A DNA stretch of 34,027 bases. It comes from a virus (taxonomy: Duplodnaviria; Heunggongvirae; Uroviricota; Caudoviricetes). Each line of letters opens with the position of its first letter. Position 1 is the first letter of the stretch. Shown here one piece after another: positions 1 through 15,398 of the stretch. The position numbers and the translations under genes were made by a program. The notes beneath the pieces were generated by a model, which was not told the DNA's origin, made no database searches, and worked only from the letters and a program-made list of their open reading frames with translations. The stretch is taken from the IMG/VR virus record IMGVR_UViG_2698536418_000026; one strand, given 5' to 3'.

Positions 1-1011
1 TTATAACGTCACTCCGCCTTTTAGTGGATTCAGAGCGACGGCGTTCTGCAGGTAGTCAGGCGCAAGGTGCGCATAGGTCATTGTCTGCTGAATGCTCGCA
101 TGCCCCAGAATCTGTTGCAGTGCAATTATGTTGCCCCCATTCATCATGAAATGGCTTGCGAATGTATGCCGCAGAATGTGGGTTGCCTGATTGGGAGGTA
201 TATCAGGTTTCACTCTGCGTAAAATCCCGCAAAACTTCTCATAATCTACCTTGAACAATTTGGCGCTGGCCTCCTCTTTAACTTTTTTCTCCAGTTCCTC
301 AGAAATCGGCACTGTTCGCTTTTTACCGTTTTTGGTTTTCAGGAAGGTAACCCTGCAACTTGTAATCTGTGCTGGTTTTAGCGTGGCAACTTCCGTCCAC
401 CTTCCTCCAGTGCTCAGACATAAAAGCGCGACAAGTAAGTCATCACCAGTCAAAACATTTAGCAGTTTTTCGATTTCTGCTTTTTCCAGGAACGTCATTT
501 CAGGGTTAGCCTCCGTCAGTGGCGGCAGTCCGTGAATTGGGTGTTGCCCGGAAAATTCATCCAATTGAATTAATTTTGTGAACATGCCGGATAATCGGTA
601 CATGTCGCGGTTTATCGTTGCAGCACTGATGCCATCACGTAGTCGCATGGAGCGATAATCCATCAAAGCCCTTTTGTTCATCCGACTCACTGGTATATCA
701 CCTATGCCGCTGATGGTTTTGAGCAGATGATTAAACTCTTTTGTCCCATGCTCGTGGTTTTGCCCGTGGTATTTCCACCAGATGTCGAGTAATTCTGTCA
801 AAGTTCGGCGGTCTGCTCGCTGGCCTCCCCATTCTTTCTGACTGGCATTGGCGATTGTGTATCGCTCAAATGCTAGTGCTTCAGCTTTTCTTTCAAATTT
901 CCTGCGGATGCGTTTTCCGTCGCGACCGCGAGGTCTAATGTCCACTTCATAGCGACCATCATCGAGCTTCTTAATTGCCATAAGAAAGCCCTCCGGCGCT
1001 GTATTCACCAT
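1..1011 (-). CDS. int: Tyrosine integrase (P2 Int-like)
   Basis: 336-aa ORF; C-terminal tyrosine-recombinase motifs (HILRHTFASH ... LGHASIQQTMTYAHL); sits next to the C repressor as in P2. True start may be the internal Met (MAIKKLDDGRYEV, about nt 981). Stop codon is at the window edge (nt 1-3). Confidence 0.9.
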   Translation of the reverse strand: MVNTAPEGFLMAIKKLDDGRYEVDIRPRGRDGKRIRRKFERKAEALAFERYTIANASQKEWGGQRADRRTLTELLDIWWKYHGQNHEHGTKEFNHLLKTISGIGDIPVSRMNKRALMDYRSMRLRDGISAATINRDMYRLSGMFTKLIQLDEFSGQHPIHGLPPLTEANPEMTFLEKAEIEKLLNVLTGDDLLVALLCLSTGGRWTEVATLKPAQITSCRVTFLKTKNGKKRTVPISEELEKKVKEEASAKLFKVDYEKFCGILRRVKPDIPPNQATHILRHTFASHFMMNGGNIIALQQILGHASIQQTMTYAHLAPDYLQNAVALNPLKGGVTL

Positions 1012-1050
1012 CTTGGTGGCAAATGGTGAAAATGTAATTTTTATATAGAG

Positions 1051-1344
1051 TTAGCCAATCCTTTTCGCGGAGTGGTTGGATTCTGTTGACTCTGGCCCAC
1101 TGTGCGCGAGAGCCGGTGCGATTTGTCCCGCTTCCGGCGCTGTTTTATCTGTCATGAGCCATAGTGTGTATTTTTGGAACTGAGGTGCATTGGTGACCTG
1201 CAACACAACTTGGATGCCAGGGTCTTGATGGCCTCCTTCGTAATTCTTTAGCGTTCCTAACGCTATGCCGCTGATTTCACTGAATTTTGCTTGAGTTAGC
1301 CCTTCCGATTGTCTTATTGCTCTTAATTTCTGTGCGATATTCAT
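1051..1344 (-). CDS. C: Immunity repressor C (P2 C-like)
   Basis: ORF track gives 1051..1527, but the conserved repressor begins at the internal Met (MNIAQKLRAIRQSEGLTQ ... QFQKYTLWLMT ... GQIAPALAH), about 97 aa. Matches remembered P2 C length and C-terminal sequence; HTH in N-terminal part. Confidence 0.75.
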   Translation of the reverse strand: MNIAQKLRAIRQSEGLTQAKFSEISGIALGTLKNYEGGHQDPGIQVVLQVTNAPQFQKYTLWLMTDKTAPEAGQIAPALAHSGPESTESNHSAKRIG

Positions 1345-1376
1345 TTGACATAGTCCTGACTTAATGACTATATTCC
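1345..1376 (+). promoter_or_regulatory. Candidate early promoter Pe (TTGACA - 17/18 nt - TATATT) for the cox operon, directly abutting the C start codon
   Basis: Read directly: -35 TTGACA at 1345-1350, -10-like TATATT at 1369-1374; position fits the face-to-face Pe/Pc switch of P2-like phages. Confidence 0.4.
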
Positions 1377-1479
1377 CCGAAAAGGTCATTAATCCAGAAC
1401 CTTTTCGGGCGTGAGTCCAGCGCCGCTTAAACGGTTCCAAGCGGTTTTTAAGGGGCTGGATCCTATGAGGGTAACATAG

Positions 1480-1752
1480 ATGGAAGTTAATGATTATGTG
1501 ATTAAGTACCCGCTTGATGCGGTACATGCGGAAAAGTTTGCAGATTTATTGGGTAAACCAAAAACCGCAGTTACAGAAATGATAAAGGCTAACAAGCTAC
1601 CGGTTATCGAGCTTCGAGATCCAAATAAGCCGAAGGCCCGCGCCGGTGAGAAATGGGTTTTCATTCCAGAGTTTAATCGCGCTGTACGTGAGGCGTTTTA
1701 TAACCGACCGGTTGAACAGCGTGATGCATGGCTTTTGTGGATGGGGTTGTGA
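1480..1752 (+). CDS. cox: Cox (excision directionality factor / Pc repressor)
   Basis: 90-aa ORF transcribed away from C; length matches P2 Cox (91 aa); C-terminal WLLWMGL-type ending typical of P2 Cox from memory. Confidence 0.75.
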   Translation: MEVNDYVIKYPLDAVHAEKFADLLGKPKTAVTEMIKANKLPVIELRDPNKPKARAGEKWVFIPEFNRAVREAFYNRPVEQRDAWLLWMGL

Positions 1753-1754
1753 TT

Positions 1755-1925
1755 ATGAATGAACCGCGTTGTATTGCTCAGTTACTGCGTAACGAAAGCC
1801 CCAGGGCGATTGACTTCACCATCACCCACGGGAAGGGACGCAAGGGAATCATTATCCGCACCAAAAAACAGAGTCCGTTAAAAAAGGCTCTGACCTTTCT
1901 GAAAAGCCGGAGGGTATGGAAATGA
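1755..1925 (+). CDS. Small early protein (P2 orf78 position)
   Basis: ORF beginning at ATG 1755 (MNEPRC...), overlapping the cox stop; position only, no recognisable motif. Confidence 0.35.
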   Translation: MNEPRCIAQLLRNESPRAIDFTITHGKGRKGIIIRTKKQSPLKKALTFLKSRRVWK

Positions 1926-2422
1926 CAGTGATGACGCTCAATCTCGTTGAAAAACAGCCAGCAGCTATGCGCCGGATAATTGGTAAGCATCTGGCCGTCC
2001 CTCGCTGGCAGGATACATGTGATTATTATAATCAGATGATGGAGCGCGAACGGCTAACAGTTTGCTTTCATGCGCAGTTAAAACAACGTCACGCAACGAT
2101 GCGTTTTGAAGAAATGAACGACGTCGAACGTGAACGGCTGGTTTGTGCAATTGATGAATTGCGTGGGGCATTCTCAAAACGCCGTCAGGTTGGCGCAAGT
2201 GAGTATGCATATATTAGTTTTTTAACAGTCAGTCAGCGTCGTACTTTATTTATGCATGCCGGATTGACTGAAAAAGAATTCAACCAGCCATACTGGCGAA
2301 TTAATGAAGAGTCATGTTACTGGCGTGATGCTTTATTCCGTGCATTACGTGAATTATTCAGTCTGTTTGAGTATGCACCGACAATTCTGACGTCGGTAAA
2401 ACCAGAGCAATATCTGCATTAA
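1916..2422 (+). CDS. B: Replication protein B (helicase-loader-like, P2 B position)
   Basis: 168-aa ORF at the P2 gene B position (P2 B about 166 aa from memory); start overlaps the preceding ORF. Confidence 0.6.
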   Translation: MEMTVMTLNLVEKQPAAMRRIIGKHLAVPRWQDTCDYYNQMMERERLTVCFHAQLKQRHATMRFEEMNDVERERLVCAIDELRGAFSKRRQVGASEYAYISFLTVSQRRTLFMHAGLTEKEFNQPYWRINEESCYWRDALFRALRELFSLFEYAPTILTSVKPEQYLH

Positions 2423-2443
2423 GTAATTAACCAGAGTTTTTAA

Positions 2444-2471
2444 CGCACTTAATCGTGCGGGGCTTCTTTTT
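2444..2471 (+). terminator. Hairpin plus T-run after B (candidate attenuator/terminator)
   Basis: CGCAC-ttaatc-GTGCG stem-loop followed by GGGCTTCTTTTT, read directly. Confidence 0.3.
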
Positions 2472-2485
2472 GCCTGGAGAAAGTC

Positions 2486-2710
2486 ATGCATACAGTTTCT
2501 GAAAATCAGTGCGGTAAATACGCATTACTGCTGCAACAGGCCAGAACCGAAGCACAGGCCGACGCTGCGACGCGCTTTTCTTCTCATCTTGACGCCATGA
2601 TTCGCCACATAACAAAGGCGGAGTTATCCCGCGTGGAGATAGTCGAGCTGCTCAGTCAGGAGTCGGAAAAATTTCACAATATCGGATTGTCTCGCGGGGA
2701 GGTGCTTTGA
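2486..2710 (+). CDS. Early-operon small protein (P2 orf80 position)
   Basis: 74-aa ORF; position between B and A as in P2. Confidence 0.5.
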
Positions 2711-3009
2711 TGTCCTGTTCTCATTCAGTTGTATTACTGAATAACGCCTTAAAAATCGCCGTTATGGAAAATGGTGATTTGTCTCTTATTCAACTTTGTC
2801 TTGATAAAGAAAAACGCGACATAACTGAATCTGTTATCGCGATTTATCAGAATGAATTAAACCTCCTGTCTGATGTGGTCAATTTACTTGTTAAACGCGC
2901 TGTATTCCACAAGCAAATTTCCTCCGTGGATGAACTGACAAAATTAACGACAGAACTTGCCAGTTATTGCGCTGATGTATCCAGGAAACTTAACGATAAA
3001 AGGAGCTGA
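2707..3009 (+). CDS. Early-operon small protein (P2 orf81 position)
   Basis: 100-aa ORF with 4-nt overlap to the upstream ORF (translational coupling). Confidence 0.5.
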
Positions 3010-3011
3010 TA

Positions 3012-3236
3012 ATGCCGGACAACGTAGATTTTATTCAGGAACAACAGACTGAATTACTGGAGCGCCAGATTAACGCGGCAAGGGTAAAACATTGCGGTGC
3101 TTCTGCGCTGGTTTGCGAAGAGTGTGACGCGCCAATACCTGCTGCCCGTCGTGCGGCTTATCCGTCAGCCACGCGTTGTGTTTCCTGTCAGTCAGTCTTT
3201 GAAGCAAAAAACAAACATTACCGGAGAACGGCATGA
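3012..3236 (+). CDS. DksA/TraR-family C4 zinc-finger protein (P2 orf82 position)
   Basis: 74 aa with CxxC ... CxxC (CEECDAPIP ... RCVSCQ), typical of TraR/DksA-like phage proteins. Confidence 0.7.
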   Translation: MPDNVDFIQEQQTELLERQINAARVKHCGASALVCEECDAPIPAARRAAYPSATRCVSCQSVFEAKNKHYRRTA

Positions 3237-3508
3237 GTATTCGTATTGAAATTGGCGAACGTTATGTCGTTACCAGTGACAGCTTTCAGTTTATTCTCCA
3301 CGAGAAAAAGAGAGCGGAAAGCGGTAAAAACGCCGGTCAGGAATGGCTGTCGGTGGTTGGTTATTACCCGAAATTAAGCCAGCTCGTTTCCGGCCTGATG
3401 CATCACGATATTCTGACCGGAAGCGCAAAGTCTTTTGCTGATTTAAACGTGCAGGTTGAGCAACTCAGCAAGCGTTGTTCAGAGGCTTTTGGCTCATATG
3501 GCCGTTAA
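3233..3508 (+). CDS. Early-operon small protein (P2 orf83 position)
   Basis: 91-aa ORF overlapping the start of A. Confidence 0.5.
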   Translation: MSIRIEIGERYVVTSDSFQFILHEKKRAESGKNAGQEWLSVVGYYPKLSQLVSGLMHHDILTGSAKSFADLNVQVEQLSKRCSEAFGSYGR

Positions 3509-5777
3509 AGCCTCCGGGCGTTTTGTCCCTCCGTCAGCATTTGCCGCAGGCACCGGTAAGGCGTTTACCGGTGCTTATGCATGGAACGCGCCACGCGAGG
3601 CTGTCGGGCGCGAAAGACCCCTTACACGTGACGAGATGCGTCAGGTGCAAGGTGTTTTATCCACGATTAACCGCCTGCCTTACTTTTTGCGCTCGCTGTT
3701 TACTTCACGCTATGACTACATCCGGCGCAATAAAAGCCCGGTGCACGGGTTTTATTTTCTCACATCCACTTTTCAGCGTCGTTTATGGCCGCGCATTGAG
3801 CGTGTGAATCAGCGCCATGAAATGAACACCGACGCGTCGTTGCTGTTTCTGGCAGAGCGTGACCATTATGCGCGTCTGCCGGGGATGAATGACAAGGAGC
3901 TGAAAAAGTTTGCCGCCCGTATCTCATCGCAGCTTTTCATGATGTATGAGGAACTCTGCGATGCCTGGGTGGATGCGCATGGCGAAAAAGAATCGCTGTT
4001 TACGGATGAGGCGCAGGCTCACCTCTATGGTCATGTTGCTGGTGCTGCACGTGCTTTCAATATTTCCCCTCTCTACTGGAAAAAATACCGTAAAGGGCAG
4101 ATGACCACGAGGCAGGCATATTCTGCCGTTGCCCGTCTGTTTAACGATGAGTGGTGGACCCATCAGCTTAAAGGCCAGCGTATGCGCTGGCATGAGGCGT
4201 TACTGATTGCTGTCGGGGAGGTCAATAAAGACCGTTCTCCTTATGCCAGTAAACATGCCATTCGTGATGTGCGTGCACGCCGCCAGGCAAATCTGGAATT
4301 TCTTAAATCGTGTGATCTCGAAAACAGGGAAACCGGCGAGCGCATCGACCTTATCAGTAAGGTGATGGGCAGTATTTCTAATCCTGAAATTCGCCGGATG
4401 GAGCTGATGAACACCATTGCCGGTATTGAGCGTTACGCCGCAGCAGAGGGTGATGTGGGGATGTTTATCACGCTGACCGCGCCGTCAAAGTATCACCCGA
4501 CACGTCAGGTCAGAAAAGGCGAAAGTAAAACCGTCCAGCTAAATCACGGCTGGAACGATGAGGCATTTAATCCAAAGGATGCGCAGCGTTATCTCTGCCG
4601 TATCTGGAGCCTGATGCGCACGGCATTCAAGGATAATGATTTACAGGTCTACGGTTTGCGTGTCGTCGAGCCACACCACGACGGAACGCCGCACTGGCAT
4701 ATGATGCTTTTTTGTAATCCGCGCCAGCGTAACCAGATTATCGAAATCATGCGTCGCTATGCGCTCAAAGAGGATGGCGACGAAAGAGGAGCCGCGCGAA
4801 ACCGTTTTCAGGCAAAACACCTTAACCGGGGCGGTGCTGCGGGGTATATCGCGAAATACATCTCAAAAAACATCGACGGCTATGCACTGGATGGTCAGCT
4901 CGATAACGATACCGGCAGGCCGCTGAAAGACACTGCTGCGGCTGTTACCGCATGGGCGTCAACGTGGCGCATCCCGCAATTTAAAACGGTTGGTCTGCCG
5001 ACAATGGGGGCTTACCGTGAACTACGCAAATTGCCGCGCGGCGTCAGCATTGCTGATGAGTTTGACGAGCGCGTCGAGGCTGCACGCGCCGCCGCAGACA
5101 GTGGTGATTTTGCGTTGTATATCAGCGCGCAGGGTGGGGCAAATGTCCCGCGCGATTGTCAGACTGTCAGGGTCGCCCGTAGCCCGTCGGATGACGTTAA
5201 CGAGTACGAGGAAGAGGTCGAGAGGGTGGTCGGCATTTACGCGCCGCATCTCGGCGCGCGTCATATTCATATCACCAGAACGACGGACTGGCGCATTGTG
5301 CCGAAAGTTCCGGTCGTTGAGCCTTTGACTTTAAAAAGCGGCATCGCCGCGCCTCGGAGTCCTGTCAATAACTGTGGAAAGCTCACCGGTGGTGATACTT
5401 CGTTACCGGCTCCCACACCTTCTGAGCATGCCGCAGCAGTGCTTAATCTGGTTGATGACGGTGTTATCGAATGGAATGACCCGGAGGTGGTGAGGGCGCT
5501 CAGGGGTGCATTAAAACACGGTCGGAGAACGCCAAGTCGTCAGCAAAGAAACGGAAGCCCGTTAAAACCACATGAAATTGCACCATCGGCCAGACTGACC
5601 AGGTCGGAACGAATGCAAATCACCCGTATCCGCGTTGACCTTGCTCAAAACGGTATCAGGCCGCAGCGATGGGAGCTTGAGGCGTTAGTACGCGGTGCGA
5701 TCGTCAATTACAATGAAAAGCAATTTTCATATCCTGGTGTAGATGAGTGGAGTGGGTTTTCTGGTTATTCAGAGTAA
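3456..5777 (+). CDS. A: Replication initiation endonuclease A (rolling-circle Rep, P2 gpA-like)
   Basis: 773-aa ORF (P2 A about 761 aa); rolling-circle Rep tyrosine motif region GYIAKYISKNIDGY and HxH-like metal motif PHWHMMLF. True start may be an internal Met (about nt 3498). Confidence 0.9.
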   Translation: MSNSASVVQRLLAHMAVKASGRFVPPSAFAAGTGKAFTGAYAWNAPREAVGRERPLTRDEMRQVQGVLSTINRLPYFLRSLFTSRYDYIRRNKSPVHGFYFLTSTFQRRLWPRIERVNQRHEMNTDASLLFLAERDHYARLPGMNDKELKKFAARISSQLFMMYEELCDAWVDAHGEKESLFTDEAQAHLYGHVAGAARAFNISPLYWKKYRKGQMTTRQAYSAVARLFNDEWWTHQLKGQRMRWHEALLIAVGEVNKDRSPYASKHAIRDVRARRQANLEFLKSCDLENRETGERIDLISKVMGSISNPEIRRMELMNTIAGIERYAAAEGDVGMFITLTAPSKYHPTRQVRKGESKTVQLNHGWNDEAFNPKDAQRYLCRIWSLMRTAFKDNDLQVYGLRVVEPHHDGTPHWHMMLFCNPRQRNQIIEIMRRYALKEDGDERGAARNRFQAKHLNRGGAAGYIAKYISKNIDGYALDGQLDNDTGRPLKDTAAAVTAWASTWRIPQFKTVGLPTMGAYRELRKLPRGVSIADEFDERVEAARAAADSGDFALYISAQGGANVPRDCQTVRVARSPSDDVNEYEEEVERVVGIYAPHLGARHIHITRTTDWRIVPKVPVVEPLTLKSGIAAPRSPVNNCGKLTGGDTSLPAPTPSEHAAAVLNLVDDGVIEWNDPEVVRALRGALKHGRRTPSRQQRNGSPLKPHEIAPSARLTRSERMQITRIRVDLAQNGIRPQRWELEALVRGAIVNYNEKQFSYPGVDEWSGFSGYSE

Positions 5778-5985
5778 TAAATATAATGTTTTAGATTGGT
5801 TGCATAATGGTAAGGTTGCTGTTTATCTGTATATGTTAATATGATTACGCTACGTACAAATAATCGACATTTCTTTTTTTTCTATATATTAATATTGATG
5901 ATTTTACTGGTGGTACAATAAGTCTATGTTGAAATTCGAGAATTGTATTATTAACAATAAAAACTGGTTCTTTTTATCATACAAG

Positions 5986-6019
5986 GACCACCTCCTTAGG
6001 AGGTGGTCTTTTACTGTTT
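5986..6019. terminator. Strong hairpin (GACCACCTCC-tta-GGAGGTGGTC) followed by TTTTACTGTTT, between convergent genes A and the cargo helicase
   Basis: 10-bp perfect stem with 3-nt loop and T-run on the plus strand; immediately abuts the stop of the minus-strand cargo gene, so may act bidirectionally. Confidence 0.45.
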
Positions 6020-8501
6020 AACGAGGATTTCGCGTATAGGTTTCAACTATGTCTGATGCACGTAATTTACATGTAATCAATTGTTCTCTTATAAATATCT
6101 CATCGTGTCGTTTATCACTTGTACAAATGGCCGTGATAAAACTGAGGATAGATGCTTTAAAACGTTCAAGATCATTTATGGTCATTATTCGAGACCCTTC
6201 GTTTAGTGTTGCGGCATATTCAGGCATGTTAGAGTGATGTATCATTATAGGTGTGGCGGTAGCAGTTTGATCATACATGTTTCTGAACCATGCACCCGAC
6301 CCATTTAACTGATTGCAGTCATGCTTACTTATTCTTTCTGCGGTTGCTCCATTTTTGCATTCAATTACTAGATAATTGTTTTCTCCCATTGCCCATAAAT
6401 TGTCAGGTCCTTTACCTGTATCATTTTCTGGCCGTTGGCTACGAAAACCGACCAAATATGCAACTTTTTCGATAGCATCTTCGAAGGGATTCGATGTGCC
6501 CTCGGAGAAAATAAGGTTTTCTATTATTGAATTAGTATGCACAACGACTTGATTCGCCGATTCAAAATTACTTCTGAGATAGGAGCTACATTCCCTAGCC
6601 TGTTCAAGTGCCGCACCATTAAGTCTATTATATGTTACGCCGATTAGTGGTTTTAATACCCGATAGTTATCGTTTGATGCAGACTGAAGCAATATCTGAG
6701 CTTCAGATTTGTCATATAAGTTTACATATTCCGCAGCATGTTCTTTTAGATAACCCTTATAAACTTTGTCAGCTGTGCTACTATCATTTTTTAGAGTTAA
6801 AGCGGCTTGTTGAAACATATTTCGTGATGCTAAGTCATATGCCAATCTTTTGTTTATAGTATGCTGGTCAATCTGCTTATTTTCCAATGTTAAGCCAGTC
6901 AATATACCTTTGCTTTTTGAGACCCAGTCAGAATTGCGTAACAGACAATAATCAAGAGCACCTTTGATTGAATCAATAGTTGTATCCGGCAGTATCGATA
7001 CCAATTGCTGTGAAAGTTGAATTTGTGCTTTCGTTGCTGGAGAAAACCTTTCTAAGGAGGAGCCAAGGAAAACAGCGCCATTTAATGCTTTGCCAAGTAA
7101 GATCACTCCGCAGAAGTCGTCGCTTGATCTCACTCCTCGCCCCATTCCTTGTTCAATTTTCTGGATAATTTCATCTTTGGTTTTTTCGCTTCCAAGCAAT
7201 AAGCTTTGTGAGACTTTATCTATTAGTCTACGAACGTCAGGAAGTCCATCTATTACTAATAGACGACATGCGGTATTTGGTAAATCAATACCATCATATC
7301 TATTAACTAGGACTACTAAGCCAACATGTTGTGTCCTTAATTCTTGTACACCTTGATAAATTGTATTTTTATCTAATATTCTGTCTGCAACATCTTGCCA
7401 AAATCTAGTTCTGTAATCGGATGGTACAATTACAACAACATTATGTTTGGAGGATATCTCCTTGCACATAGCTTTGATATCTACATCAGAAAGACTAGGG
7501 TTTATAACCTGAGGCATTAGTATCATTCTATCACCAATATCACCAATTGTTTTTGGTGTTATCGGATTAGAGAGTGATTCATCCGTTATTCCGAAGTGGC
7601 TCGCTAGAATGGATTCATCGACAAGAGTAGCTGTCATGAATATTTTTCTTCTTGCGTTTGATAGGCTTGGGATCATTTGGATTGGTATGCAATGAGGTGA
7701 TATCTCTATTTTGGAAGCACTTACAACGCATTTCGATAATATTAGATTGTCTTTTATTAATGGCCATTTGAAACTCAAGTCATCATGGTCTTTATTTTCT
7801 AACAAGATTGTCATTATATCATTTATGCTTTCTTGCCATTTCCAAAATGGAACTCTCACATAAGCATTTCTATCGCCGGATTTTATCTCTAGTGTTTTTG
7901 CACCAGCTTGTGTCATTAGTGAATTTTCAAAAATTCTGAATAATTTATCATAGGCAGGGTTATTTTTTTGAATGCTAATGGAGAATTGTTCTTCAATTGA
8001 AGAAAGGCAAGCGTGAGCATCGTCAATTATTATAGAGCCTATTGGTATTTTTTGTCCATCATCTCCAACGCCAAATGCAGAACGTCCATTAACCACTTTG
8101 AATATATTTGTAACTAAAATTTCTTTACCTGCAATAAATTTGGGGGACCTCTCATCCTGAGTTACAGGTATACCAAGTTGATTAGCCTCCAAAACCACTT
8201 GCTCAACTAGATAGTTGTCAGGAACAACATATACAGCGGGACCTTCTCCTTCATTTATACAGCTTTTAAGAATGATTAACCCAACTGAAGTTTTACCGCT
8301 TCCGGTATTCATTTTTATTACATTGGTTGGGCTTCTCCTTGCTTCATACCATTTTTCCCAGACCTCTGATTGCACATCTCGAGGGTATTGAAATTTGGTG
8401 TCTTTGCTCGGTAGAGCTGTAAATATATCTCGCGGTGGAATCGCTGTGTCGCTATTTACACTGGGCGAAAGCTTGGTTAAATCAAGGAAAAAACCAGACA
8501 T
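6018..8501 (-). CDS. SF2 (DEAD/DEAH-like) helicase fused to C-terminal PD-(D/E)xK nuclease; candidate single-gene anti-phage defence protein in the P2 tin/old hotspot
   Basis: 827-aa ORF with good RBS (AGAGGA). Helicase motifs read from the translation: I NTGSGKTS (res 64-72), Ia VVPDNYLVEQ, II IIIDDAH (158-163), III MTATL (289-293), V YDGIDLP (402-408), VI QGMGRGVR (451-458). C-terminal PD...ExK: GKGPD(700)NLWAMGENNYLVIE(714)CK(716). Markedly AT-rich compared with the flanking phage genes. Confidence 0.85.
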   Translation of the reverse strand: MSGFFLDLTKLSPSVNSDTAIPPRDIFTALPSKDTKFQYPRDVQSEVWEKWYEARRSPTNVIKMNTGSGKTSVGLIILKSCINEGEGPAVYVVPDNYLVEQVVLEANQLGIPVTQDERSPKFIAGKEILVTNIFKVVNGRSAFGVGDDGQKIPIGSIIIDDAHACLSSIEEQFSISIQKNNPAYDKLFRIFENSLMTQAGAKTLEIKSGDRNAYVRVPFWKWQESINDIMTILLENKDHDDLSFKWPLIKDNLILSKCVVSASKIEISPHCIPIQMIPSLSNARRKIFMTATLVDESILASHFGITDESLSNPITPKTIGDIGDRMILMPQVINPSLSDVDIKAMCKEISSKHNVVVIVPSDYRTRFWQDVADRILDKNTIYQGVQELRTQHVGLVVLVNRYDGIDLPNTACRLLVIDGLPDVRRLIDKVSQSLLLGSEKTKDEIIQKIEQGMGRGVRSSDDFCGVILLGKALNGAVFLGSSLERFSPATKAQIQLSQQLVSILPDTTIDSIKGALDYCLLRNSDWVSKSKGILTGLTLENKQIDQHTINKRLAYDLASRNMFQQAALTLKNDSSTADKVYKGYLKEHAAEYVNLYDKSEAQILLQSASNDNYRVLKPLIGVTYNRLNGAALEQARECSSYLRSNFESANQVVVHTNSIIENLIFSEGTSNPFEDAIEKVAYLVGFRSQRPENDTGKGPDNLWAMGENNYLVIECKNGATAERISKHDCNQLNGSGAWFRNMYDQTATATPIMIHHSNMPEYAATLNEGSRIMTINDLERFKASILSFITAICTSDKRHDEIFIREQLITCKLRASDIVETYTRNPR

Positions 8502-8562
8502 TTTTTATCCTCTTACAGGTACATTAGTTTAATTGTTAACGCAGAATTATCATTACCATAAC

Positions 8563-8662
8563 TTGCATTAAGTTGCATTACATTGCATTCATAAACGTTA
8601 GCTAGGGGCGAAGTCTGAGGTTTGATGGGCTATGGTGTCCCCTTTAATACGAGGTTGCATTA
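8563..8662. promoter_or_regulatory. Phased TTGCATT(A) repeats upstream of the cargo gene start (candidate operator/promoter element)
   Basis: TTGCATTA at 8563-8570 and 8573-8580, TTGCATTC at 8583-8590 (exact 10-bp spacing) and TTGCATTA at 8655-8662; read directly. Confidence 0.3.
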
Positions 8663-8684
8663 AAACCGCCCCATGAAGCGGGCG

Positions 8685-8703
8685 GGCGAGGCGGGGAAAG
8701 CAC
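8685..8703. other. cos: cos site (19-nt P2-type cohesive end GGCGAGGCGGGGAAAGCAC)
   Basis: Exact match to the P2 cohesive-end sequence as I remember it, at the expected position between the old-locus cargo and Q. Confidence 0.55.
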
Positions 8704-8840
8704 TGCGCGCTGGCGGTGGTGCTGATTTTATTTTTTCAGCGTCTGAGCGCGTCTTGATGGCGTTTAGATTGTGCGCCGGGGCGTTGGTGTGTCTGCGGGG
8801 TGTTTTGTGCGGTGGTGAGCGTGTGAGGGCGTGATGACGG

Positions 8841-8868
8841 GGTGTAAAAAAGCCGCCCGCAGGCGGCG
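8841..8868 (-). terminator. Rho-independent terminator downstream of Q (minus strand)
   Basis: GCCGCC-cgca-GGCGGC hairpin followed on the minus strand by TTTTTT (plus strand GGTGTAAAAAA). Confidence 0.5.
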
Positions 8869-8872
8869 ATGT

Positions 8873-9907
8873 TCAGCCGTTGTCAGTGTCCAGTGAGTAG
8901 TTTTTAAAGCGGATGACCTCCTGGCCGAGCCAGCCGTTTATTTCCCGAATCCTGTCCTGTAACGGGATAAGTTCATTGCGGACAAAGACCTTTGCCACTT
9001 TCTCAATATCACCCAGCGACCCGACGTTCTCCGGCTTGCCGCCCATCAACTGAAAGGGGATGCGGTGCGCGTCCAGCAGGTCAGCGGCGCTGGCTTTTTT
9101 GATATTAAAAAAATCGTCCTTCGTTGCCACTTCACTGAGCGGGATAATTTTAATGCCGTCGGCTTTCCCCTGCGGGGCATAGAGAAACAGATTTTTAAAG
9201 TTGTTGCGGCCTTTCGACTTGACCATGTTTTCGCGAAGCATTTCGATATCGTTGCGATCCTGCACGGCATCAGTGACGTACATGATGTATCCGGCATGTG
9301 CGCCATTTTCGTAATACTTGCGGCGGAACAGCGTGGCCGACTCATTCAGCCAGGCAGAGTTAAGGGCGCTGAGATATTCCGGCAGGCCGTACAGCTCCTG
9401 ATTAATATCCGGCTCCAGCAGGTGAAACACGGAGCCGGGCGCGAAGGCTGTCGGCTCGTTGAAGGACGGCACCCACCAGTAAACATCCTCTTCCACACCA
9501 CGGCGGGTATATTTTGCCGGTGAGGTTTCCAGCCTGATAACTTTACCGGTGGTGCTGTAACGCTTTTCCAGAAACGCATTACCGAACACCAGAAAATCCA
9601 GCACAAAGCGGCTGAAATCCTGCTGGGAAAGCCACGGATGCGGGATAAATGTCGACGCCAGAATATTGCGTTTGACGTAAATCGGTGAGCTGTGATGCAC
9701 GGCAGCACGCAGGCTTTTTGCCAGACCGGTAAAGCTGACCGGTGGCTCATACCATCTGCCGTTACTGATGCATTCGACGTAATCCAGAATGTCACGGCGG
9801 TCGAGTACCGGCACCGGCTCGCCAAAGGTGAATGCCTCCATTTTCGGGGTGCTGGCGGTCATTTTTTTTGCCGCAGGTTGCGGTGTTTTCCCTTTTTTCT
9901 TGCTCAT
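8873..9907 (-). CDS. Q: Portal protein (P2 gpQ-like)
   Basis: 344 aa, identical in length to P2 Q; position and orientation (divergent from O-N-M) as in P2. Confidence 0.9.
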   Translation of the reverse strand: MSKKKGKTPQPAAKKMTASTPKMEAFTFGEPVPVLDRRDILDYVECISNGRWYEPPVSFTGLAKSLRAAVHHSSPIYVKRNILASTFIPHPWLSQQDFSRFVLDFLVFGNAFLEKRYSTTGKVIRLETSPAKYTRRGVEEDVYWWVPSFNEPTAFAPGSVFHLLEPDINQELYGLPEYLSALNSAWLNESATLFRRKYYENGAHAGYIMYVTDAVQDRNDIEMLRENMVKSKGRNNFKNLFLYAPQGKADGIKIIPLSEVATKDDFFNIKKASAADLLDAHRIPFQLMGGKPENVGSLGDIEKVAKVFVRNELIPLQDRIREINGWLGQEVIRFKNYSLDTDNG

Positions 9908-11709
9908 CAGTAAAACTCCAGAATGGTGGATGTCAGCGGAGTGCTGATACCCGCGGTGAGTGGCTCATTTAACAGGGCGTGCATGGTCGCCCAGGCGAGG
10001 TCGGCGTGGCTGGCTTCCTCGCTGCGGCTGGCCTCATAGGTGGCGCTGCGTCCGCTGCTGGTCATGGTCTTGCGGATAGCCATAAACGAGCTGGTGATGT
10101 CGGTGGCGCTGACGTCATATTCCAGACAGCCACGGCGAATAACGTCTTTTGCCTTGAGCACCATTGCGGTTTTCATTTCCGGCGTGTAGCGGATATCGCG
10201 CGCGGCGGGATAGAACGAGCGCACGAGCTGGAACACGCCGACACCGAGGCCGGTGGCATCAATACCGATGTATTCGACGTTATATTTTTCGGTGAGTTTG
10301 CGGATGGATTCCGCCTGGGTGGCAAAGTCCATGCCTTTCCACTGGTGACGCTCAAGTATTCTGAATTTGCCACCGGCCACCACCGGCGGTGCCAGCACCA
10401 CGCATCCGGCGCTGTCGCCACGGTGTGACGGGTCGTAACCAATCCATACCGGGCGGGAGCCGAACGGATTGGCGGCAAACGGCGCATAGTCTTCCCATTC
10501 TTCCAGCGTGTCGACCATGCAGCGTTGCAGCTCCTCGAACGGGAATACCGACGCCTTGTCGTCAACAAATTCACACATGAACAGGTTTTTAAAATCGTCG
10601 GCGCTGTTTTCGCGTTTGAGCTGCTCAATGTCGAACAGCGTGCAGCCGCCTTTCAGTGCGTCCTCAATGGTGACAATCTGCCGCCACTGGCCGTCCGCAC
10701 AGAGAAGACCACCGGCAAGGGCGTTATGACTGACGTCGATTTCCACGCGTTCGGCGGCGCTGGCGCGTCCCCGGTTGAACAGTTCACCCGACCAGAACGG
10801 GTAGGCGTCGTGCGCCAGCGTGGATGGGGTGGAGAAATAGGTCGAGCGCAGGTGACTCTGTGAGGCCATACCTGATGCCACCTTACGCAGTACCTGAAAA
10901 TTCGGGATCCAGAAAATCTCGTCGACGTACAGGTCGCCGTTATGGCTCTGCGCGGTGTTGGAGTTGGTGCCGAGAAAAATCAGTTTTGCGCCGTTATTGC
11001 CCAGGACAATCGGGTCACCGGTCAGGTCAACGTCAACCAGACGGGCAAAGGCGATGATGTATTCGCGGAACACATACGCCTGCGTTTTACTGGCCGACAG
11101 AAAAATCTGGTTATGGCCGGTTTTCAGGGCGCGCAGCAGCGCCTCGCGGGAAAAATAAAATGTCGCGCCAATCTGGCGGGATTTCAGGATATCGCGGATG
11201 CGGTGCTCAAGCCCGGCGCGATACCAGTGCAACTGATAGTCGAAAGACTGCTCAAAGAAAATCTGCTCCAGCTTTTCGATGGCCTCGTCACTGAAAAAAT
11301 TCTTTTTCGGTTTGCGGCGCCCGCCTTTGTTGCGGTTAGCGACGTTCGGATTAAGGTCTGCCTCGTTGCCGGTCTGGCTGTAGCGGTTGACCCGTGCCAG
11401 TCGTTCAATCTGGCGTCCCAGCAGGTCAATTTCCTTGAAATCACCGCCGGTTTTCTGCGGTTTGATGATGAGCTGGGTCAGCCGCGCTTCCAGACTCATT
11501 TCGACACGGCTGATGGGGGCAACGCTGTCCCAGCCGTCGCGCTGTTTCCAGCTCTGCACCGTCGGGCGTTTCATCTGCAACATGGCGGCAATCTGCGGCA
11601 CGGAAAATCCCTGCCAGTACAGCAGCGCCGCCTGACGACGCGGGTCGTGTAAAAGAGTGGTGTCTGTGGTGATGGTCATGAATACCTCGCCGTGATGAAT
11701 ACACGGCAA
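9907..11709 (-). CDS. P: Terminase large subunit (ATPase/nuclease, P2 gpP-like)
   Basis: 600-aa ORF (P2 P about 590 aa; likely start at internal Met MTITTD, about nt 11679); start/stop overlap with Q. Confidence 0.9.
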   Translation of the reverse strand: MPCIHHGEVFMTITTDTTLLHDPRRQAALLYWQGFSVPQIAAMLQMKRPTVQSWKQRDGWDSVAPISRVEMSLEARLTQLIIKPQKTGGDFKEIDLLGRQIERLARVNRYSQTGNEADLNPNVANRNKGGRRKPKKNFFSDEAIEKLEQIFFEQSFDYQLHWYRAGLEHRIRDILKSRQIGATFYFSREALLRALKTGHNQIFLSASKTQAYVFREYIIAFARLVDVDLTGDPIVLGNNGAKLIFLGTNSNTAQSHNGDLYVDEIFWIPNFQVLRKVASGMASQSHLRSTYFSTPSTLAHDAYPFWSGELFNRGRASAAERVEIDVSHNALAGGLLCADGQWRQIVTIEDALKGGCTLFDIEQLKRENSADDFKNLFMCEFVDDKASVFPFEELQRCMVDTLEEWEDYAPFAANPFGSRPVWIGYDPSHRGDSAGCVVLAPPVVAGGKFRILERHQWKGMDFATQAESIRKLTEKYNVEYIGIDATGLGVGVFQLVRSFYPAARDIRYTPEMKTAMVLKAKDVIRRGCLEYDVSATDITSSFMAIRKTMTSSGRSATYEASRSEEASHADLAWATMHALLNEPLTAGISTPLTSTILEFY

Positions 11710-11852
11710 GGCTACTGAGTCGCACCCCGCGATTCGCTAAGGTGCTGTTGTGTCAGTGATAAGCCATCCGGGACTGATGGCGGAGGATGCGCATCGTCGG
11801 GAAACTGATGCCGACATGTGACTCCTCTAATCACTATTCAGGACTCCTGACA

Positions 11853-12707
11853 ATGGCAAAAAAAGTCTCAAAATTCTTTCGTATCGGCGTTGAGGGTGAC
11901 ACCTGTGACGGGCGTGTCATCAGTGCGCAGGATATTCAGGAAATGGCCGAAACCTTTGACCCGCGAGTCTATGGTTGCCGCATTAACCTGGAACATCTGC
12001 GCGGCATCCTGCCTGACGGTATTTTTAAGCGTTATGGCGATGTGGCCGAACTGAAGGCCGAAAAGATTGACGATGATTCGGCGCTGAAAGGCAAATGGGC
12101 GCTGTTTGCGAAAATCACCCCGACCGATGACCTTATCGCGATGAACAAGGCCGCGCAGAAGGTCTATACCTCAATGGAAATTCAGCCGAACTTTGCCAAT
12201 ACCGGCAAATGTTATCTGGTGGGTCTGGCCGTCACCGATGACCCGGCAAGCCTCGGCACGGAATACCTGGAATTCTGCCGCACGGCAAAACACAACCCCC
12301 TGAACCGCTTCAAATTAAGCCCTGAAAACCTGATTTCAGTGGCAACGCCTGTTGAGCTGGAATTTGAAGACCTGCCTGAAACCGTGTTCACAGCCCTGAC
12401 CGAAAAGGTGAAATCCATTTTTGGCCGCAAACAGGCCAGCGATGACGCCCGTCTGAATGACGTGCATGAAGCGGTGACCGCTGTCGCTGAGCATGTGCAG
12501 GAAAAACTGAGCGCCACTGAGCAGCGCCTTGCTGAGATGGAAACCGCCTTTTCCGCACTTAAGCAGGATGTGACTGACAGGGCGGATGAAACCAGTCAGG
12601 CATTCACCCGCCTGAAAAACAGTCTCGACCACACCGAAAGTCTGACCCAGCAGCGCCGCAGTAAAGCCACCGGCGGTGGCGGTGACGCCCTGATGACGAA
12701 CTGCTGA
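11853..12707 (+). CDS. O: Capsid scaffolding protein (P2 gpO-like)
   Basis: Start placed at internal Met MAKKVSKFFRIGVEGDTCDGR... giving 284 aa as in P2 O; ORF track start 11787 is probably an over-extension. Confidence 0.9.
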   Translation: MAKKVSKFFRIGVEGDTCDGRVISAQDIQEMAETFDPRVYGCRINLEHLRGILPDGIFKRYGDVAELKAEKIDDDSALKGKWALFAKITPTDDLIAMNKAAQKVYTSMEIQPNFANTGKCYLVGLAVTDDPASLGTEYLEFCRTAKHNPLNRFKLSPENLISVATPVELEFEDLPETVFTALTEKVKSIFGRKQASDDARLNDVHEAVTAVAEHVQEKLSATEQRLAEMETAFSALKQDVTDRADETSQAFTRLKNSLDHTESLTQQRRSKATGGGGDALMTNC

Positions 12708-12765
12708 CCGGTGTCAGTCAGTCCGGGAAAACCTTCACGATTAACCCTTAATTTCAGGAAAAACT

Positions 12766-13839
12766 ATGCGCCAGGAAACCCGCTTTAAATTTAATGCCTA
12801 CCTGTCCCGTGTTGCCGAACTGAACGGCATCGACGCCGGTGATGTGTCGAAAAAATTTACCGTTGAACCGTCGGTCACCCAGACCCTGATGAACACCATG
12901 CAGGAGTCCTCTGACTTTCTGACCCGCATCAACATTGTGCCGGTCAGCGAAATGAAAGGGGAAAAAATTGGTATTGGTGTCACCGGCTCCATCGCCAGCA
13001 CCAGCGACACCGCCGGTGGCACCGAGCGTCAGCCGAAGGACTTCTCGAAGCTGGCGTCAAACAAGTACGAATGCGACCAGATTAACTTCGATTTTTATAT
13101 CCGCTACAAAACGCTGGACCTGTGGGCGCGTTATCAGGATTTCCAGCTCCGTGTCCGTAACGCCATTATCAAACGCCAGTCCCTTGATTTAATCATGGCC
13201 GGTTTTAACGGCGTGAGGCGTGCCGAAACCTCTGACCGCAGCAGCAATCCGATGCTGCAGGATGTGGCGGTCGGCTGGCTGCAGAAATACCGCAATGAAG
13301 CCCCGGCGCGCGTGATGAGCAAGGTCACTGACGAGGAAGGGCACACCACCTCTGAGGTTATCCGCGTGGGTAAGGGCGGTGATTATGCCAGCCTTGACGC
13401 ACTGGTGATGGATGCGACCAACAACCTGATTGAGCCGTGGTATCAGGAAGACCCTGACCTTGTGGTGATTGTGGGACGTCAGCTACTGGCGGACAAGTAT
13501 TTTCCCATCGTCAACAAGGAGCAGGACAACAGCGAAATGCTGGCCGCTGACGTCATCATCAGCCAGAAACGCATCGGTAACCTGCCGGCGGTACGCGTCC
13601 CGTACTTCCCGGCGGATGCGATGCTCATCACAAAGCTGGAAAACCTGTCCATCTACTACATGGATGACAGCCATCGCCGCGTGATTGAGGAAAACCCGAA
13701 ACTCGACCGCGTGGAGAACTACGAGTCAATGAACATTGATTACGTGGTGGAAGACTACGCCGCCGGTTGTCTGGTGGAAAAAATTAAGGTCGGTGATTTC
13801 TCCACACTGGCTAAAGCGACCGCAGAGCCGGGAGCGTAA
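12766..13839 (+). CDS. N: Major capsid protein (P2 gpN-like)
   Basis: 357 aa, same length as P2 N; conserved position. Confidence 0.9.
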   Translation: MRQETRFKFNAYLSRVAELNGIDAGDVSKKFTVEPSVTQTLMNTMQESSDFLTRINIVPVSEMKGEKIGIGVTGSIASTSDTAGGTERQPKDFSKLASNKYECDQINFDFYIRYKTLDLWARYQDFQLRVRNAIIKRQSLDLIMAGFNGVRRAETSDRSSNPMLQDVAVGWLQKYRNEAPARVMSKVTDEEGHTTSEVIRVGKGGDYASLDALVMDATNNLIEPWYQEDPDLVVIVGRQLLADKYFPIVNKEQDNSEMLAADVIISQKRIGNLPAVRVPYFPADAMLITKLENLSIYYMDDSHRRVIEENPKLDRVENYESMNIDYVVEDYAAGCLVEKIKVGDFSTLAKATAEPGA

Positions 13840-13842
13840 CCG

Positions 13843-14586
13843 ATGACGAGTCCCGCACAGCGCCACATGATGCGGGTCTCGGCAGCGATGACCGCGCAGC
13901 GGGAAGCCGCCCCGCTGCGACATGCAACTGTCTATGAGCAGATGCTGGTTAAGCTCGCCGCAGACCAGCGCACACTGAAAGCGATTTATTCAAAAGAGCT
14001 GAAGGCCGCGAAAAAACGCGAACTGCTGCCGTTCTGGTTGCCGTGGGTGAACGGCGTGCTGGAGCAGGGCAAAGGTGCACAGGATGACATTCTGATGACG
14101 GTCATGCTGTGGCGTCTGGATACCGGCGATATTGCCGGTGCGCTGGAGATTGCCCGTTATGCCCTGAAGTACGGTCTGACCATGCCGGGTAAACACCGCC
14201 GCACCCCGCCGTACATGTTCACCGAGGAGGTGGCGCTCGCGGCCATGCGTGCTCACGCTGCCGGTGAGTCTGTGGATACCCGCCTGCTGACGGAGACCCT
14301 TGAACTGACCGCCACGGCTGACATGCCTGATGAAGTGCGCGCAAAGCTGCACAAAATCACCGGTCTGTTTCTGCGTGATGGTGGTGATGCCGCCGGTGCG
14401 CTGGCTCACCTGCAACGTGCGACACAGCTCGACTGTCAGGCAGGTGTCAAAAAAGAGATTGAACGACTGGAGCGGGAGCTGAAACCGAAGCCGGAGCCGC
14501 AGCCCAAAGCGGCCACCCGTACCCCGCGTAAGACCCGGAGCGTGACACCGGCAAAACGTGGACGCCCGAAAAAGAAAGCCAGTTAA
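13843..14586 (+). CDS. M: Terminase small subunit / endonuclease subunit (P2 gpM-like)
   Basis: 247 aa as in P2 M; basic C-terminal tail. Confidence 0.9.
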   Translation: MTSPAQRHMMRVSAAMTAQREAAPLRHATVYEQMLVKLAADQRTLKAIYSKELKAAKKRELLPFWLPWVNGVLEQGKGAQDDILMTVMLWRLDTGDIAGALEIARYALKYGLTMPGKHRRTPPYMFTEEVALAAMRAHAAGESVDTRLLTETLELTATADMPDEVRAKLHKITGLFLRDGGDAAGALAHLQRATQLDCQAGVKKEIERLERELKPKPEPQPKAATRTPRKTRSVTPAKRGRPKKKAS

Positions 14587-14685
14587 CAACCGAATGCGCC
14601 CCGCGCCAGGGCGGCACGCCGGTCAGGGAGGGTGAATCACCTGACGCTGTACCGGCGTCCACCGCCCGACTTTTCAGAGGTAGTC

Positions 14686-15195
14686 ATGATGACGCTGATT
14701 ATTCCGCGAAAGGAGGCTCCCGTGTCCGGTGAGGGTACGGTGGTCATCCCGCAACCGGCAGGCGACGAGCCGGTGATTAAAAACACGTTCTTTTTTCCCG
14801 ATATCGACCCGAAGCGCGTCCGGGAACGTATGCGCCTTGAGCAGACCGTCGCCCCCGCCCGTCTGCGTGAGGCCATCAAGTCAGGCATGGCGGAGACGAA
14901 TGCGGAGCTGTACGAGTACCGCGAACAGAAAATTGCCGCCGGTTTTACGCGTCTGGCGGACGTTCCGGCGGACGACATCGACGGTGAAAGCATCAAAGTT
15001 TTTTACTACGAGCGCGCCGTGTGTGCGATGGCGACCGCGTCGCTTTATGAGCGTTACCGCGGCGTGGATGCCAGTGCGAAAGGCGACAAGAAGGCCGACA
15101 GCATTGACAGCACCATTGATGAGCTGTGGCGGGATATGCGCTGGGCGGTGGCGCGTATCCAGGACAAGCCGCGCTGCATCGTGAGTCAAATCTGA
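14686..15195 (+). CDS. L: Head completion/stabilisation protein (P2 gpL-like)
   Basis: Start at internal Met MMTLIIPRKE gives 169 aa as in P2 L. Confidence 0.85.
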   Translation: MMTLIIPRKEAPVSGEGTVVIPQPAGDEPVIKNTFFFPDIDPKRVRERMRLEQTVAPARLREAIKSGMAETNAELYEYREQKIAAGFTRLADVPADDIDGESIKVFYYERAVCAMATASLYERYRGVDASAKGDKKADSIDSTIDELWRDMRWAVARIQDKPRCIVSQI

Positions 15196-15398
15196 TGAAG
15201 ACCTTTGCGCTACAGGGCGACACGCTCGACGCCATTTGTGTCCGGTATTACGGGCGCACTGAGGGCGTGGTTGAGACCGTGCTCGCCGCAAATCCGGGAC
15301 TGGCTGAACTGGGTGCGGTGCTGCCACACGGCACCGCCGTCGAACTGCCCGACGTTCAGACCGCGCCCGTGGCTGAAACTGTCAATCTGTGGGAGTAA
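15195..15398 (+). CDS. X: Tail protein X (LysM-like, P2 gpX)
   Basis: 67 aa (MKTFALQGDTLDAICVRYYGRTEG...), same length as P2 X; ATG overlaps the L stop. Confidence 0.85.
   Translation: MKTFALQGDTLDAICVRYYGRTEGVVETVLAANPGLAELGAVLPHGTAVELPDVQTAPVAETVNLWE

Follow-up and report, generated by a model that had tools for sequence, protein, structure and literature searches.

Hna is a family of single-protein helicase-nucleases with anti-phage activity, reportedly described by Sather et al. in 2023. According to published work, the Hna proteins of S. meliloti and E. coli protect by abortive infection triggered by phage SSB, and an account of Hna structure and mechanism is available (Hooper et al. 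2026, PMC13381803). SmHna, encoded by S. meliloti pSymA (PDB 9YHN/9YKJ/10UJ), has neither an Fe-S cluster nor unwinding activity, and in its K729A and PDE mutants the nuclease activity is abolished or lowered (PMC13381803). E. coli Hna proteins protect E. coli and are reported to be SSB-activated; the published EcHna (Sather 2023; bioRxiv 2025.07.10.664194), which may be another protein than the one discussed here, is a mixture of 97 kDa monomer and 194 kDa dimer that is nuclease-silent without a trigger. A length of ~830 aa and the Pfam pair ResIII and Helicase_C_2 have been reported for the family (PMC11232893).

P2-like prophages possess a hotspot that adjoins cos and for which 1,650 alternative cargo arrangements have been catalogued (Rousset et al. 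2022, PMC9122126). One entry in that catalogue, system #28 ('ResIII/DEAD', 130 loci), was labelled 'Type III REase' (Table S5B); it occupies the gpA/gpQ locus considered here, was outside the systems tested in that study, and predates the description of Hna. The sequence printed for system #28, which covers ~400 N-terminal residues, is identical to that of the 827-aa protein that is the subject of this work. This protein is therefore P2-hotspot cargo already catalogued in 2022, and we claim neither a new mechanism nor a new class of system. Our literature search found no publication linking Hna with P2-like prophages, and no paper in it mentions the corresponding RefSeq product, WP_021570163, in its main text.

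Assignment of the 827-aa protein to the Hna family

The gene, hereafter hna, occupies positions 6018..8501 (minus strand) of the window, by which we mean the whole 34,027-nucleotide stretch that was analysed. It starts with ATG and encodes 827 aa (~92 kDa). An open reading frame of this length in DNA of 37% GC, with thousands of full-length homologues, is not a chance occurrence. A phmmer search of the PDB returned the Hna entries 9yhn, 9ykj and 10uj (E 5.8e-121, residues 60-792), and BLASTP against full-length SmHna, whose gene was taken from pSymA by tblastn, gave 32% identity over 751 aa (E 2e-129), with the N-terminal ~60 residues left out of the alignment. The AF2 model (pLDDT 87.4) led to the same family: the best Foldseek match was the Hna monomer 9yhn (E 3.1e-61, TM 0.69, 834 columns), followed by both chains of the Hna dimer, and the next class, comprising DinG, XPD and CasDinG, appeared only at ~1e-11. 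Pfam domains were ResIII (8.9e-10), DEAD and Helicase_C_2, so that the protein has both the domain pair and the approximate length reported for Hna. The best PADLOC model was PDC-S28 (PDLC04986), matched over the full length with 1055 bits. Since proteins of the SmHna clade match the same model, PDC-S28 is an earlier, candidate name for the Hna family, one that is computational and carries no function or mechanism. Taken together, these findings establish that the 827-aa protein belongs to the known Hna family rather than representing a system of a new kind. A preliminary description of this DNA had suggested a resemblance to Hna-type proteins and proposed PADLOC and structure prediction as checks; both bore the suggestion out, as did the mapping of individual residues described below.

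By homology, the protein can be divided roughly into an SF2 ATPase core of HEL1 and HEL2 (~40-480), a helical linker (~480-680) and a PD-(D/E)xK nuclease (~685-800), the last coinciding in the AF2 model with a beta-strand core at 701-715 flanked by helices. Sequence, structure and residue mapping thus agree with the earlier view that an SF2 helicase and a C-terminal PD-(D/E)xK nuclease are combined in a single gene. All of the motifs named at that time are present, namely GSGKT (67-71), DDAH (160-163), TAT (290-292), GIDLP (404-408), QGMGRGVR (451-458), GPD (698-700) and ECK (714-716), and the residues proposed for mutagenesis (K70, D160/D161 and D700/E714/K716) were numbered correctly; the spacing given for the nuclease motif was wrong, as it reads GPD-N12-IECK rather than GPD-N14-IECK.

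Each published catalytic residue of SmHna has an exact counterpart. The Walker A codons (8289..8303, minus strand) encode K70, equivalent to SmHna K72. The Q-motif-like codons for R41-D-V-Q44 (8370..8381, minus strand) supply the equivalents of R36 and Q39, the ATP-coordinating pair altered in the published RQ mutant (PMC13381803). The nuclease core codons (6354..6410, minus strand; G698-P-D700...I713-E714-C-K716) place P699, D700, E714 and K716 at the positions of P712, D713, E727 and K729. In an alignment of 114 family sequences, K70, D160, D161, R41, Q44 and R455 were invariant throughout, and P699, D700, E714 and K716 were invariant among the full-length members. The two proteins also share a single-gene organization on mobile DNA, a length of ~830-845 aa, an N-terminal DinG/XPD-like SF2 core lacking an Fe-S cluster and, as judged from the model, the same fold. 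They differ in overall sequence (~32% identity), in the N-terminal loop, which is shorter in SmHna and there contains T30 and D31, and in location, SmHna residing on a rhizobial megaplasmid and the present protein in the hotspot of an E. coli P2-like prophage.

The gpA–gpQ hotspot and the boundaries of the cassette

The genes flanking hna are those for the P2 replication endonuclease A and the portal Q, and hna is the sole cargo of the gpA–gpQ/cos hotspot, with a hairpin (5983-6011) on one side of it and cos (8685-8703) on the other. The latter is a single exact match, on the plus strand, to the 19-nt P2 cohesive-end sequence GGCGAGGCGGGGAAAGCAC. Similarity to the P2 backbone stops at ~5750-5768 (5845 in one phage) and restarts at 8656, delimiting a variable, AT-rich cassette of ~2.9 kb (5769..8655) whose intergenic flanks contain no further ORF longer than 45 aa. 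The GC content of hna is 0.34-0.40, compared to 0.52-0.61 for the backbone. These observations uphold the original picture of one large, AT-rich minus-strand gene between gene A and cos. The same hotspot houses tin and old in P2, and their role, the exclusion of other phages, is the one predicted for hna. Neither P2 Old, an ABC-ATPase joined to a TOPRIM nuclease, nor the unrelated Tin is homologous to the 827-aa protein or matches it in Pfam or PADLOC. Pfam, PADLOC and NCBIfam gave no OLD, TOPRIM or ABC-ATPase match, in keeping with the initial judgement that the protein is neither Old nor Tin.

The hairpin (5983..6011, plus strand) lies 7 nt past the hna stop codon and consists of a 13-bp GC-rich stem followed by a T-tract (-21.6 kcal/mol, z -4.6). 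The strong hairpin noted beside the gene is real. Its T-tract is present on the plus strand alone, making it a canonical terminator for transcription from gene A, while in the direction of hna the hairpin lacks a U-tract. The structure probably ends transcription of gene A (early operon) and thereby shields hna from antisense read-through. We also considered whether the hairpin is a piece of the mobile cassette, and rejected this idea because the Pectobacterium homologue has another downstream terminator.

Upstream of hna, the cassette-specific interval 8502..8655 (minus strand) contains a ribosome binding site, AAGAGGA, 8 nt before the ATG, together with three TTGCATT repeats at 8563, 8573 and 8583 in exact 10-bp phase. 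The heptamer is not over-represented across the whole window (8 found vs 9.5 expected), and only this local phased triplet stands out. No sigma-70 consensus promoter was detected upstream on the hna strand, and for this reason expression of hna in the lysogen is an assumption. Neither the Pectobacterium nor the P. aeruginosa homologue is preceded by DNA conserved with this interval.

Alternative identities and the N-terminal loop

The label in Table S5B implies a different function, that of a Type III Res subunit cutting unmodified DNA with its Mod partner encoded elsewhere. The Pfam ResIII match (8.9e-10) and the Res-like order of an SF2 ATPase followed by a PD-(D/E)xK nuclease, along with the label 'Type III REase' that Rousset et al. 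gave system #28, are compatible with such a function. However, ResIII is a generic model, and no PADLOC Type III REase or NCBIfam Res model was matched; the RecA2 domain instead matches Helicase_C_2, of the DinG/XPD type, and not the Helicase_C domain typical of Res, and the top 50 Foldseek matches comprised Hna, DinG, XPD and SecA, with no Type III Res among them. The genetic context is equally discordant. No mod or other methyltransferase gene is present in the hotspot cassette, and the near-identical prophage of E. coli strain CH4804, shown to be colinear with the window over positions 1-17499 bar one IS3 insertion, has none annotated anywhere, as expected from the preliminary description, which saw no methyltransferase partner but allowed for a Mod outside the window. 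Moreover, the catalogued loci hold no other cargo, and the homologues of the gene elsewhere are solitary as well. We regard a Type III Res function as largely refuted and its probability as close to nil.

A repair or CRISPR-accessory helicase of the DinG/XPD or CasDinG type, serving phage replication or repair rather than defence, must likewise be weighed. The 827-aa protein shares the fold of its SF2 core, in which the Arch domain is reduced, with DinG, XPD and CasDinG (Foldseek ~1e-11), and it matched the PADLOC model typeIV_DinG (2.6e-12) and PHROG 'DNA helicase' families. By comparison with the match to Hna they are weaker by ~50 orders of magnitude, a gap in the Foldseek results that also speaks against placement in a housekeeping helicase family, an outcome that the preliminary description had named as fatal to its proposal. 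DinG and XPD are housekeeping proteins with an Fe-S cluster, whereas hna is an accessory, mobile, predicted defence gene whose product lacks one: the four-cysteine Fe-S domain inserted in HD1 is absent, and the stretch from Walker A (residue 70) to motif II (residue 160) has a single cysteine, C81. There are no csf or CRISPR genes close by, SmHna is without unwinding activity, and the hotspot accommodates cargo in 1,650 alternative arrangements. Furthermore, hna DNA was absent from deposited phage genomes in a DNA-level search that included P2-like phage records, indicating that the phage has no need of the gene. A role in phage replication or repair is thus very improbable. The ExoDinG enzymes are likewise 3'-5' ssDNA exonucleases (PMC13381803), but their exonuclease is N-terminal and DnaQ-like, in contrast to the C-terminal PD-(D/E)xK domain found here.

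We next consider whether a true Hna homologue might respond to something other than phage SSB. Of the three dimer-interface residues of SmHna (T30, D31 and P34), only the proline is kept (P40, conserved in 112 of the 114 sequences); opposite T30 the alignment has D34, and opposite D31 a gap, so that dimer geometry and trigger specificity may differ from those of SmHna. The loop in question is 3 residues longer than that of SmHna yet strongly conserved within the clade of the 827-aa protein, the N-terminal ~60 residues lie beyond the BLASTP alignment, and Hooper et al. expect orthologues to recognise differing phage factors (PMC13381803). These features would suit a clade whose diverged regulatory loop senses another cue, or one that attacks the 3' ssDNA ends of phage DNA non-abortively. 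Retention of R41/Q44, P40, the Walker motifs and the nuclease triad points instead to the same ATP switch, and one E. coli Hna reportedly dimerises and is activated by SSB; we therefore judge a departure of this kind unlikely.

A related and still doubtful idea, to which we give slightly more credence, is that the enterobacterial prophage clade has kept the ATP switch and nuclease while its remodelled N-terminal loop recognises another trigger, or another SSB family (e.g. T-even gp32), than SmHna does. Tin poisons the T4 SSB gp32, and in that respect Tin and Hna would both work through phage SSB. If the idea is correct, replacement of tin by hna at the P2 locus would be a like-for-like exchange of SSB-directed exclusion modules, and the P2 hotspot would offer a natural test bed for the evolution of Hna trigger specificity.

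Predicted mode of action, distribution and significance

Taking these considerations together, hna is very likely a defence gene, the sole accessory cargo of the P2-like gpA–gpQ hotspot, whose product acts as the biochemistry of SmHna indicates. By analogy with SmHna, the DinG/XPD-like SF2 core, devoid of an Fe-S cluster, would bind ATP as long as the lysogen is uninfected, and the protein would be held as an autoinhibited homodimer in which the nuclease domain is disengaged. Phage SSB would release this ATP-locked dimer, and the freed PD-(D/E)xK domain (D700/E714/K716) would then serve as a Mg2+-dependent 3'->5' ssDNA exonuclease. The resulting DNA damage would kill or arrest the infected cell ahead of progeny release, protecting the lysogen population and the prophage with it. 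Rather than unwinding DNA as a motor, the helicase core is predicted to be an ssDNA-stimulated ATPase that operates as an ATP-dependent switch.

The prophage of strain CH4804 is inserted beside cpxP, and its gene, which encodes WP_021570163, is 100% identical to hna at the DNA level. A search of 5426 complete E. coli genomes found copies of at least 99% identity in 70 of them, and E. coli plasmids bear other Hna lineages. Homologues occur in Pectobacterium, as a solitary gene in an integrase island adjoining a Lamassu-like module, and in P. aeruginosa, as a solitary gene on an integrase/RepC element; others, likewise solitary, are found on 234 plasmids, and the surrounding genes are unrelated between loci. 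The phage collection gave a single protein-level match, with 30% identity, encoded by a gene on a Salmonella contig. Hna thus moves as a ~2.9-kb single-gene cassette among prophage hotspots, integrative islands and plasmids.

The assignment is of use chiefly for annotation. Relabelling is due: the product is no more than a 'DEAD/DEAH box helicase family protein' in RefSeq and a Type III restriction enzyme in the P2-hotspot catalogue; the proper label is Hna. A P2-like prophage with hna is present in approximately 1.3% of complete E. coli genomes, and lysogeny by these phages would provide the host with a ready-made abortive-infection system, a circumstance that bears on host range in phage therapy.

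Assignment of the cassette gene to the Hna family

The preliminary description had tentatively likened the product of the minus-strand gene at 6018..8501 (827 codons; hna hereafter) to Hna-type helicase-nucleases, and this assignment proved correct in sequence comparison, fold search and residue mapping. A phmmer search of PDB sequences matched residues 60-792 to an 845-aa protein (9yhn/9ykj/10uj; E 5.8e-121) titled 'Helicase ATP-binding domain-containing protein'; in these entries Hna of Sinorhizobium meliloti (SmHna; PMC13381803) was solved by cryo-EM as a monomer and as a dimer. We consider this match decisive for the identity of the window protein. For direct comparison the full-length SmHna gene was recovered from pSymA, and the BLASTP alignment of the two products spanned 751 residues, 32% of them identical (E 2e-129). 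Pfam matches of the hna product were to ResIII (8.9e-10), DEAD and Helicase_C_2 (7.4e-6), in agreement with the size (~840 aa) and Pfam pair tabulated by others for Hna (PMC11232893). No curated NCBIfam family matched, while PHROG 16128 (function unknown) matched at full length (1979 bits), as did the candidate family PDC-S28 (1055 bits) in the PADLOC run that had been proposed for this protein. Since PDLC04986 is the best PADLOC match of SmHna-clade proteins as well as of the window protein, PDC-S28 is a label given to Hna before the family was published.

Structure prediction and fold search, likewise proposed earlier, also placed Hna on top. For the AlphaFold2 model (mean pLDDT 87.4), computed from a family alignment of 114 sequences, Foldseek ranked the Hna monomer first in the PDB (E 3.1e-61, TM 0.69 over 834 columns) and two Hna dimer chains second and third, followed by DinG, XPD and CasDinG (~1e-11).

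All motifs listed in the preliminary description were recovered, namely GSGKT (67-71), DDAH (160-163), TAT (290-292), GIDLP (404-408), QGMGRGVR (451-458), GPD (698-700) and ECK (714-716), and the residue numbers it gave for mutagenesis are correct; the spacer between GPD and IECK, put there at 14 residues, is in fact 12. In SmHna, mutation of K729 yields a nuclease-dead protein, P712, D713 and E727 form the nuclease metal site, R36 and Q39 coordinate ATP, and T30, D31 and P34 belong to the dimer loop (PMC13381803). Alignment places SmHna K72, R36 and Q39 at K70, R41 and Q44 of the window protein, and P712, D713, E727 and K729 at P699, D700, E714 and K716; all seven window residues are invariant in the family alignment, the nuclease residues among its full-length members. 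The dimer loop appears only partly conserved. Its proline is kept (P34 to P40; 112/114), T30 is aligned with D34, D31 falls opposite a gap, the window loop is three residues longer, and the first ~60 residues lie outside the BLASTP alignment with SmHna.

Alternative readings and a proposed mechanism

A Type III restriction endonuclease Res subunit fails on its defining feature, as no Mod gene was found at the window locus or beside homologues. Res-specific matches were also absent, both among PADLOC and NCBIfam profiles and among the 50 best structures in the Foldseek ranking. Placement in a housekeeping helicase family of the DinG/XPD type, or as CasDinG, fails as well: the fold search does retrieve these proteins, but their likeness lies 50 orders of magnitude below the Hna match, and hna is a rare accessory gene with no CRISPR genes nearby. 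Moreover, the stretch from Walker A to motif II contains a single cysteine, indicating that the window protein lacks an Fe-S cluster, as does SmHna. The sole live alternative lies within the Hna family, where the window clade may answer a trigger other than that of SmHna because its N-terminal loop has diverged.

Homology, predicted fold, conserved active sites, solitary architecture and mobile carriage were established for the window protein itself; the ATP-dimer, SSB trigger, exonuclease and cell-death steps of its proposed mechanism are inferred from biochemical work on SmHna (PMC13381803). Accordingly modeled, the window protein would bind ATP and form an autoinhibited homodimer with its nuclease domain disengaged. 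A phage-encoded SSB would compete at the dimer interface and release this inhibition, freeing the PD-(D/E)xK domain for Mg2+-dependent 3'→5' degradation of ssDNA and leading to cell death or growth stop without phage release. The SF2 core would support ssDNA-stimulated ATP hydrolysis and no DNA unwinding. Independent reports describe activation of both the S. meliloti and E. coli Hna by phage SSB. The published E. coli protein, which may not be the window allele, occurs both as monomer and as dimer (97/194 kDa), is nuclease-silent in vitro absent a trigger, and protects against at least one BASEL phage.

The cassette and its flanks

A P2-like prophage fills the window, from the integrase gene (1..1011, minus strand) to the ORF after ogr. 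Replication endonuclease gene A, ending at 5777, and portal gene Q (8873..9907) flank hna, which is AT-rich relative to the backbone, as had been noted (GC 0.34-0.40 vs 0.52-0.61). Similarity to deposited P2-like phages is lost at ~5750-5768, or at 5845 in one phage, and restarts at 8656; these breakpoints therefore delimit a variable cassette of ~2.9 kb with hna as its one gene, and its intergenic flanks hold no further ORF >45 aa. The position of cos on the Q side was borne out by a single exact match in the window (8685-8703) to a 19-nt sequence that we take to be the P2 cohesive end. The hairpin terminator described on the other side holds for one direction only. This 13-bp, GC-rich hairpin (5983-6011; -21.6 kcal/mol, folding z-score -4.6) sits 7 nt past the hna stop codon with its T-tract on the + strand, and is thus a canonical terminator for transcription leaving gene A, but for hna it is a hairpin without a U-tract.

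No sigma-70 consensus promoter was found upstream on the hna strand. Three exact TTGCATT heptamers lie upstream of hna in strict 10-bp phase (8563, 8573 and 8583; 8563-8589), and a fourth at the cassette/backbone junction (8655-8661). The heptamer is not enriched across the window (8 found vs 9.5 expected), nor conserved upstream of the Pectobacterium and P. aeruginosa homologues; the repeats could be a candidate operator or promoter element particular to the E. coli cassette.

At the opposite prophage end, AT-rich DNA after ogr carries the final ORF of the window (33386-34027, + strand, 213 aa), which in E. coli strain CH4804 directly precedes chromosomal fieF. It had no Pfam match and matched PADLOC PD-T4-10_B (E 1.3e-34) over the C-terminal part of the profile only (139-346 of 353), with no PD-T4-10_A partner in the window. 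This profile match makes it a candidate for further defence-related cargo, at the ogr-attR end.

Distribution and relation to catalogued systems

Among 5426 complete E. coli genomes, 70 contained hna, always as one chromosomal copy of at least 99% identity and under no more specific annotation than 'DEAD/DEAH box helicase family protein'. CH4804 carries a 100% identical copy between replication endonuclease and portal protein genes of a P2-like prophage adjoining cpxP, colinear with window 1-17499 save an IS3 insertion. That prophage has no annotated methyltransferase at any position, and the gene was solitary at every homologue location examined, upholding the earlier remark that it lacks a methyltransferase partner. 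The IS3-family insertion (4659-6219 of the CH4804 prophage record) splits a TraR/DksA-like zinc-finger gene and is absent from the window (~3086-3090); outside it, identity is 100% (window 1-3090) and 99.4% (3086-17499). In several complete E. coli chromosomes (e.g. NZ_CP055251.1, NZ_CP148581.1, NZ_CP081333.1) hna lies at record coordinates 2520-5003, so position 1 of these records coincides with the first base of prophage replication gene A; apparently the P2 replication gene, instead of dnaA, was used as the rotation point of these assemblies.

The Hna family is large and mobile: it numbers at least 3954 proteins of ~830 aa and has homologues on 234 plasmids, including those of Legionella, Agrobacterium, Salmonella and a few E. 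coli. A P. aeruginosa homologue (54% identical) lies within an integrase/RepC element, and one from Pectobacterium (80% identical) in an integrase island adjoining a Lamassu-like module. This module (MC3 and LmuB_C domains; 14476-17953 of the Pectobacterium region) is ~4 kb from the homologue, with a T6SS Hcp gene between them, all in one integrase-bounded island, apparently a defence-island setting of Hna beyond prophages. On pSymA, a 308-aa ORF (5434-6360 of the region, L007) begins 79 bp past the SmHna stop and contains DAFAGGGS, which is similar to motif I of methyltransferases; the window gene has no equivalent neighbour.

Across 18,150 loci the gpA-gpQ interval shows 1,650 arrangements, and Rousset et al. 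2022 (PMC9122126), who defined it as a hotspot for defence, give WP_021570163, the RefSeq product of the CH4804 gene, as the sole cargo at several loci (Table S5A). Table S5B of that study counts 130 occurrences of system #28, 'ResIII/DEAD', and comments on it as 'Type III REase'; its protein agrees with the window protein across the ~400 residues printed, and the system is absent from the table of tested systems. The window protein had thus been recorded before, in 2022 among the cargo of the P2 hotspot (PMC9122126) and under the name PDC-S28 in PADLOC. Description of the Hna family dates from 2023, and publication of its structure and mechanism from 2026 (PMC13381803). In light of present evidence the 'Type III REase' label of system #28 (PMC9122126) is outdated and should give way to Hna.

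Our analysis thus adds this relabelling, which replaces both Type III REase and generic DEAD-box helicase, and explicitly connects Hna with the P2 hotspot, a connection of which we found no statement in the searchable literature. Tin, cargo of reference P2, poisons the T4 SSB gp32, so P2's own copy of the locus has an unrelated SSB-directed exclusion gene. The parallel is neat rather than a discovery: at the same locus, Tin and Hna are unrelated genes that would both provide SSB-directed exclusion.
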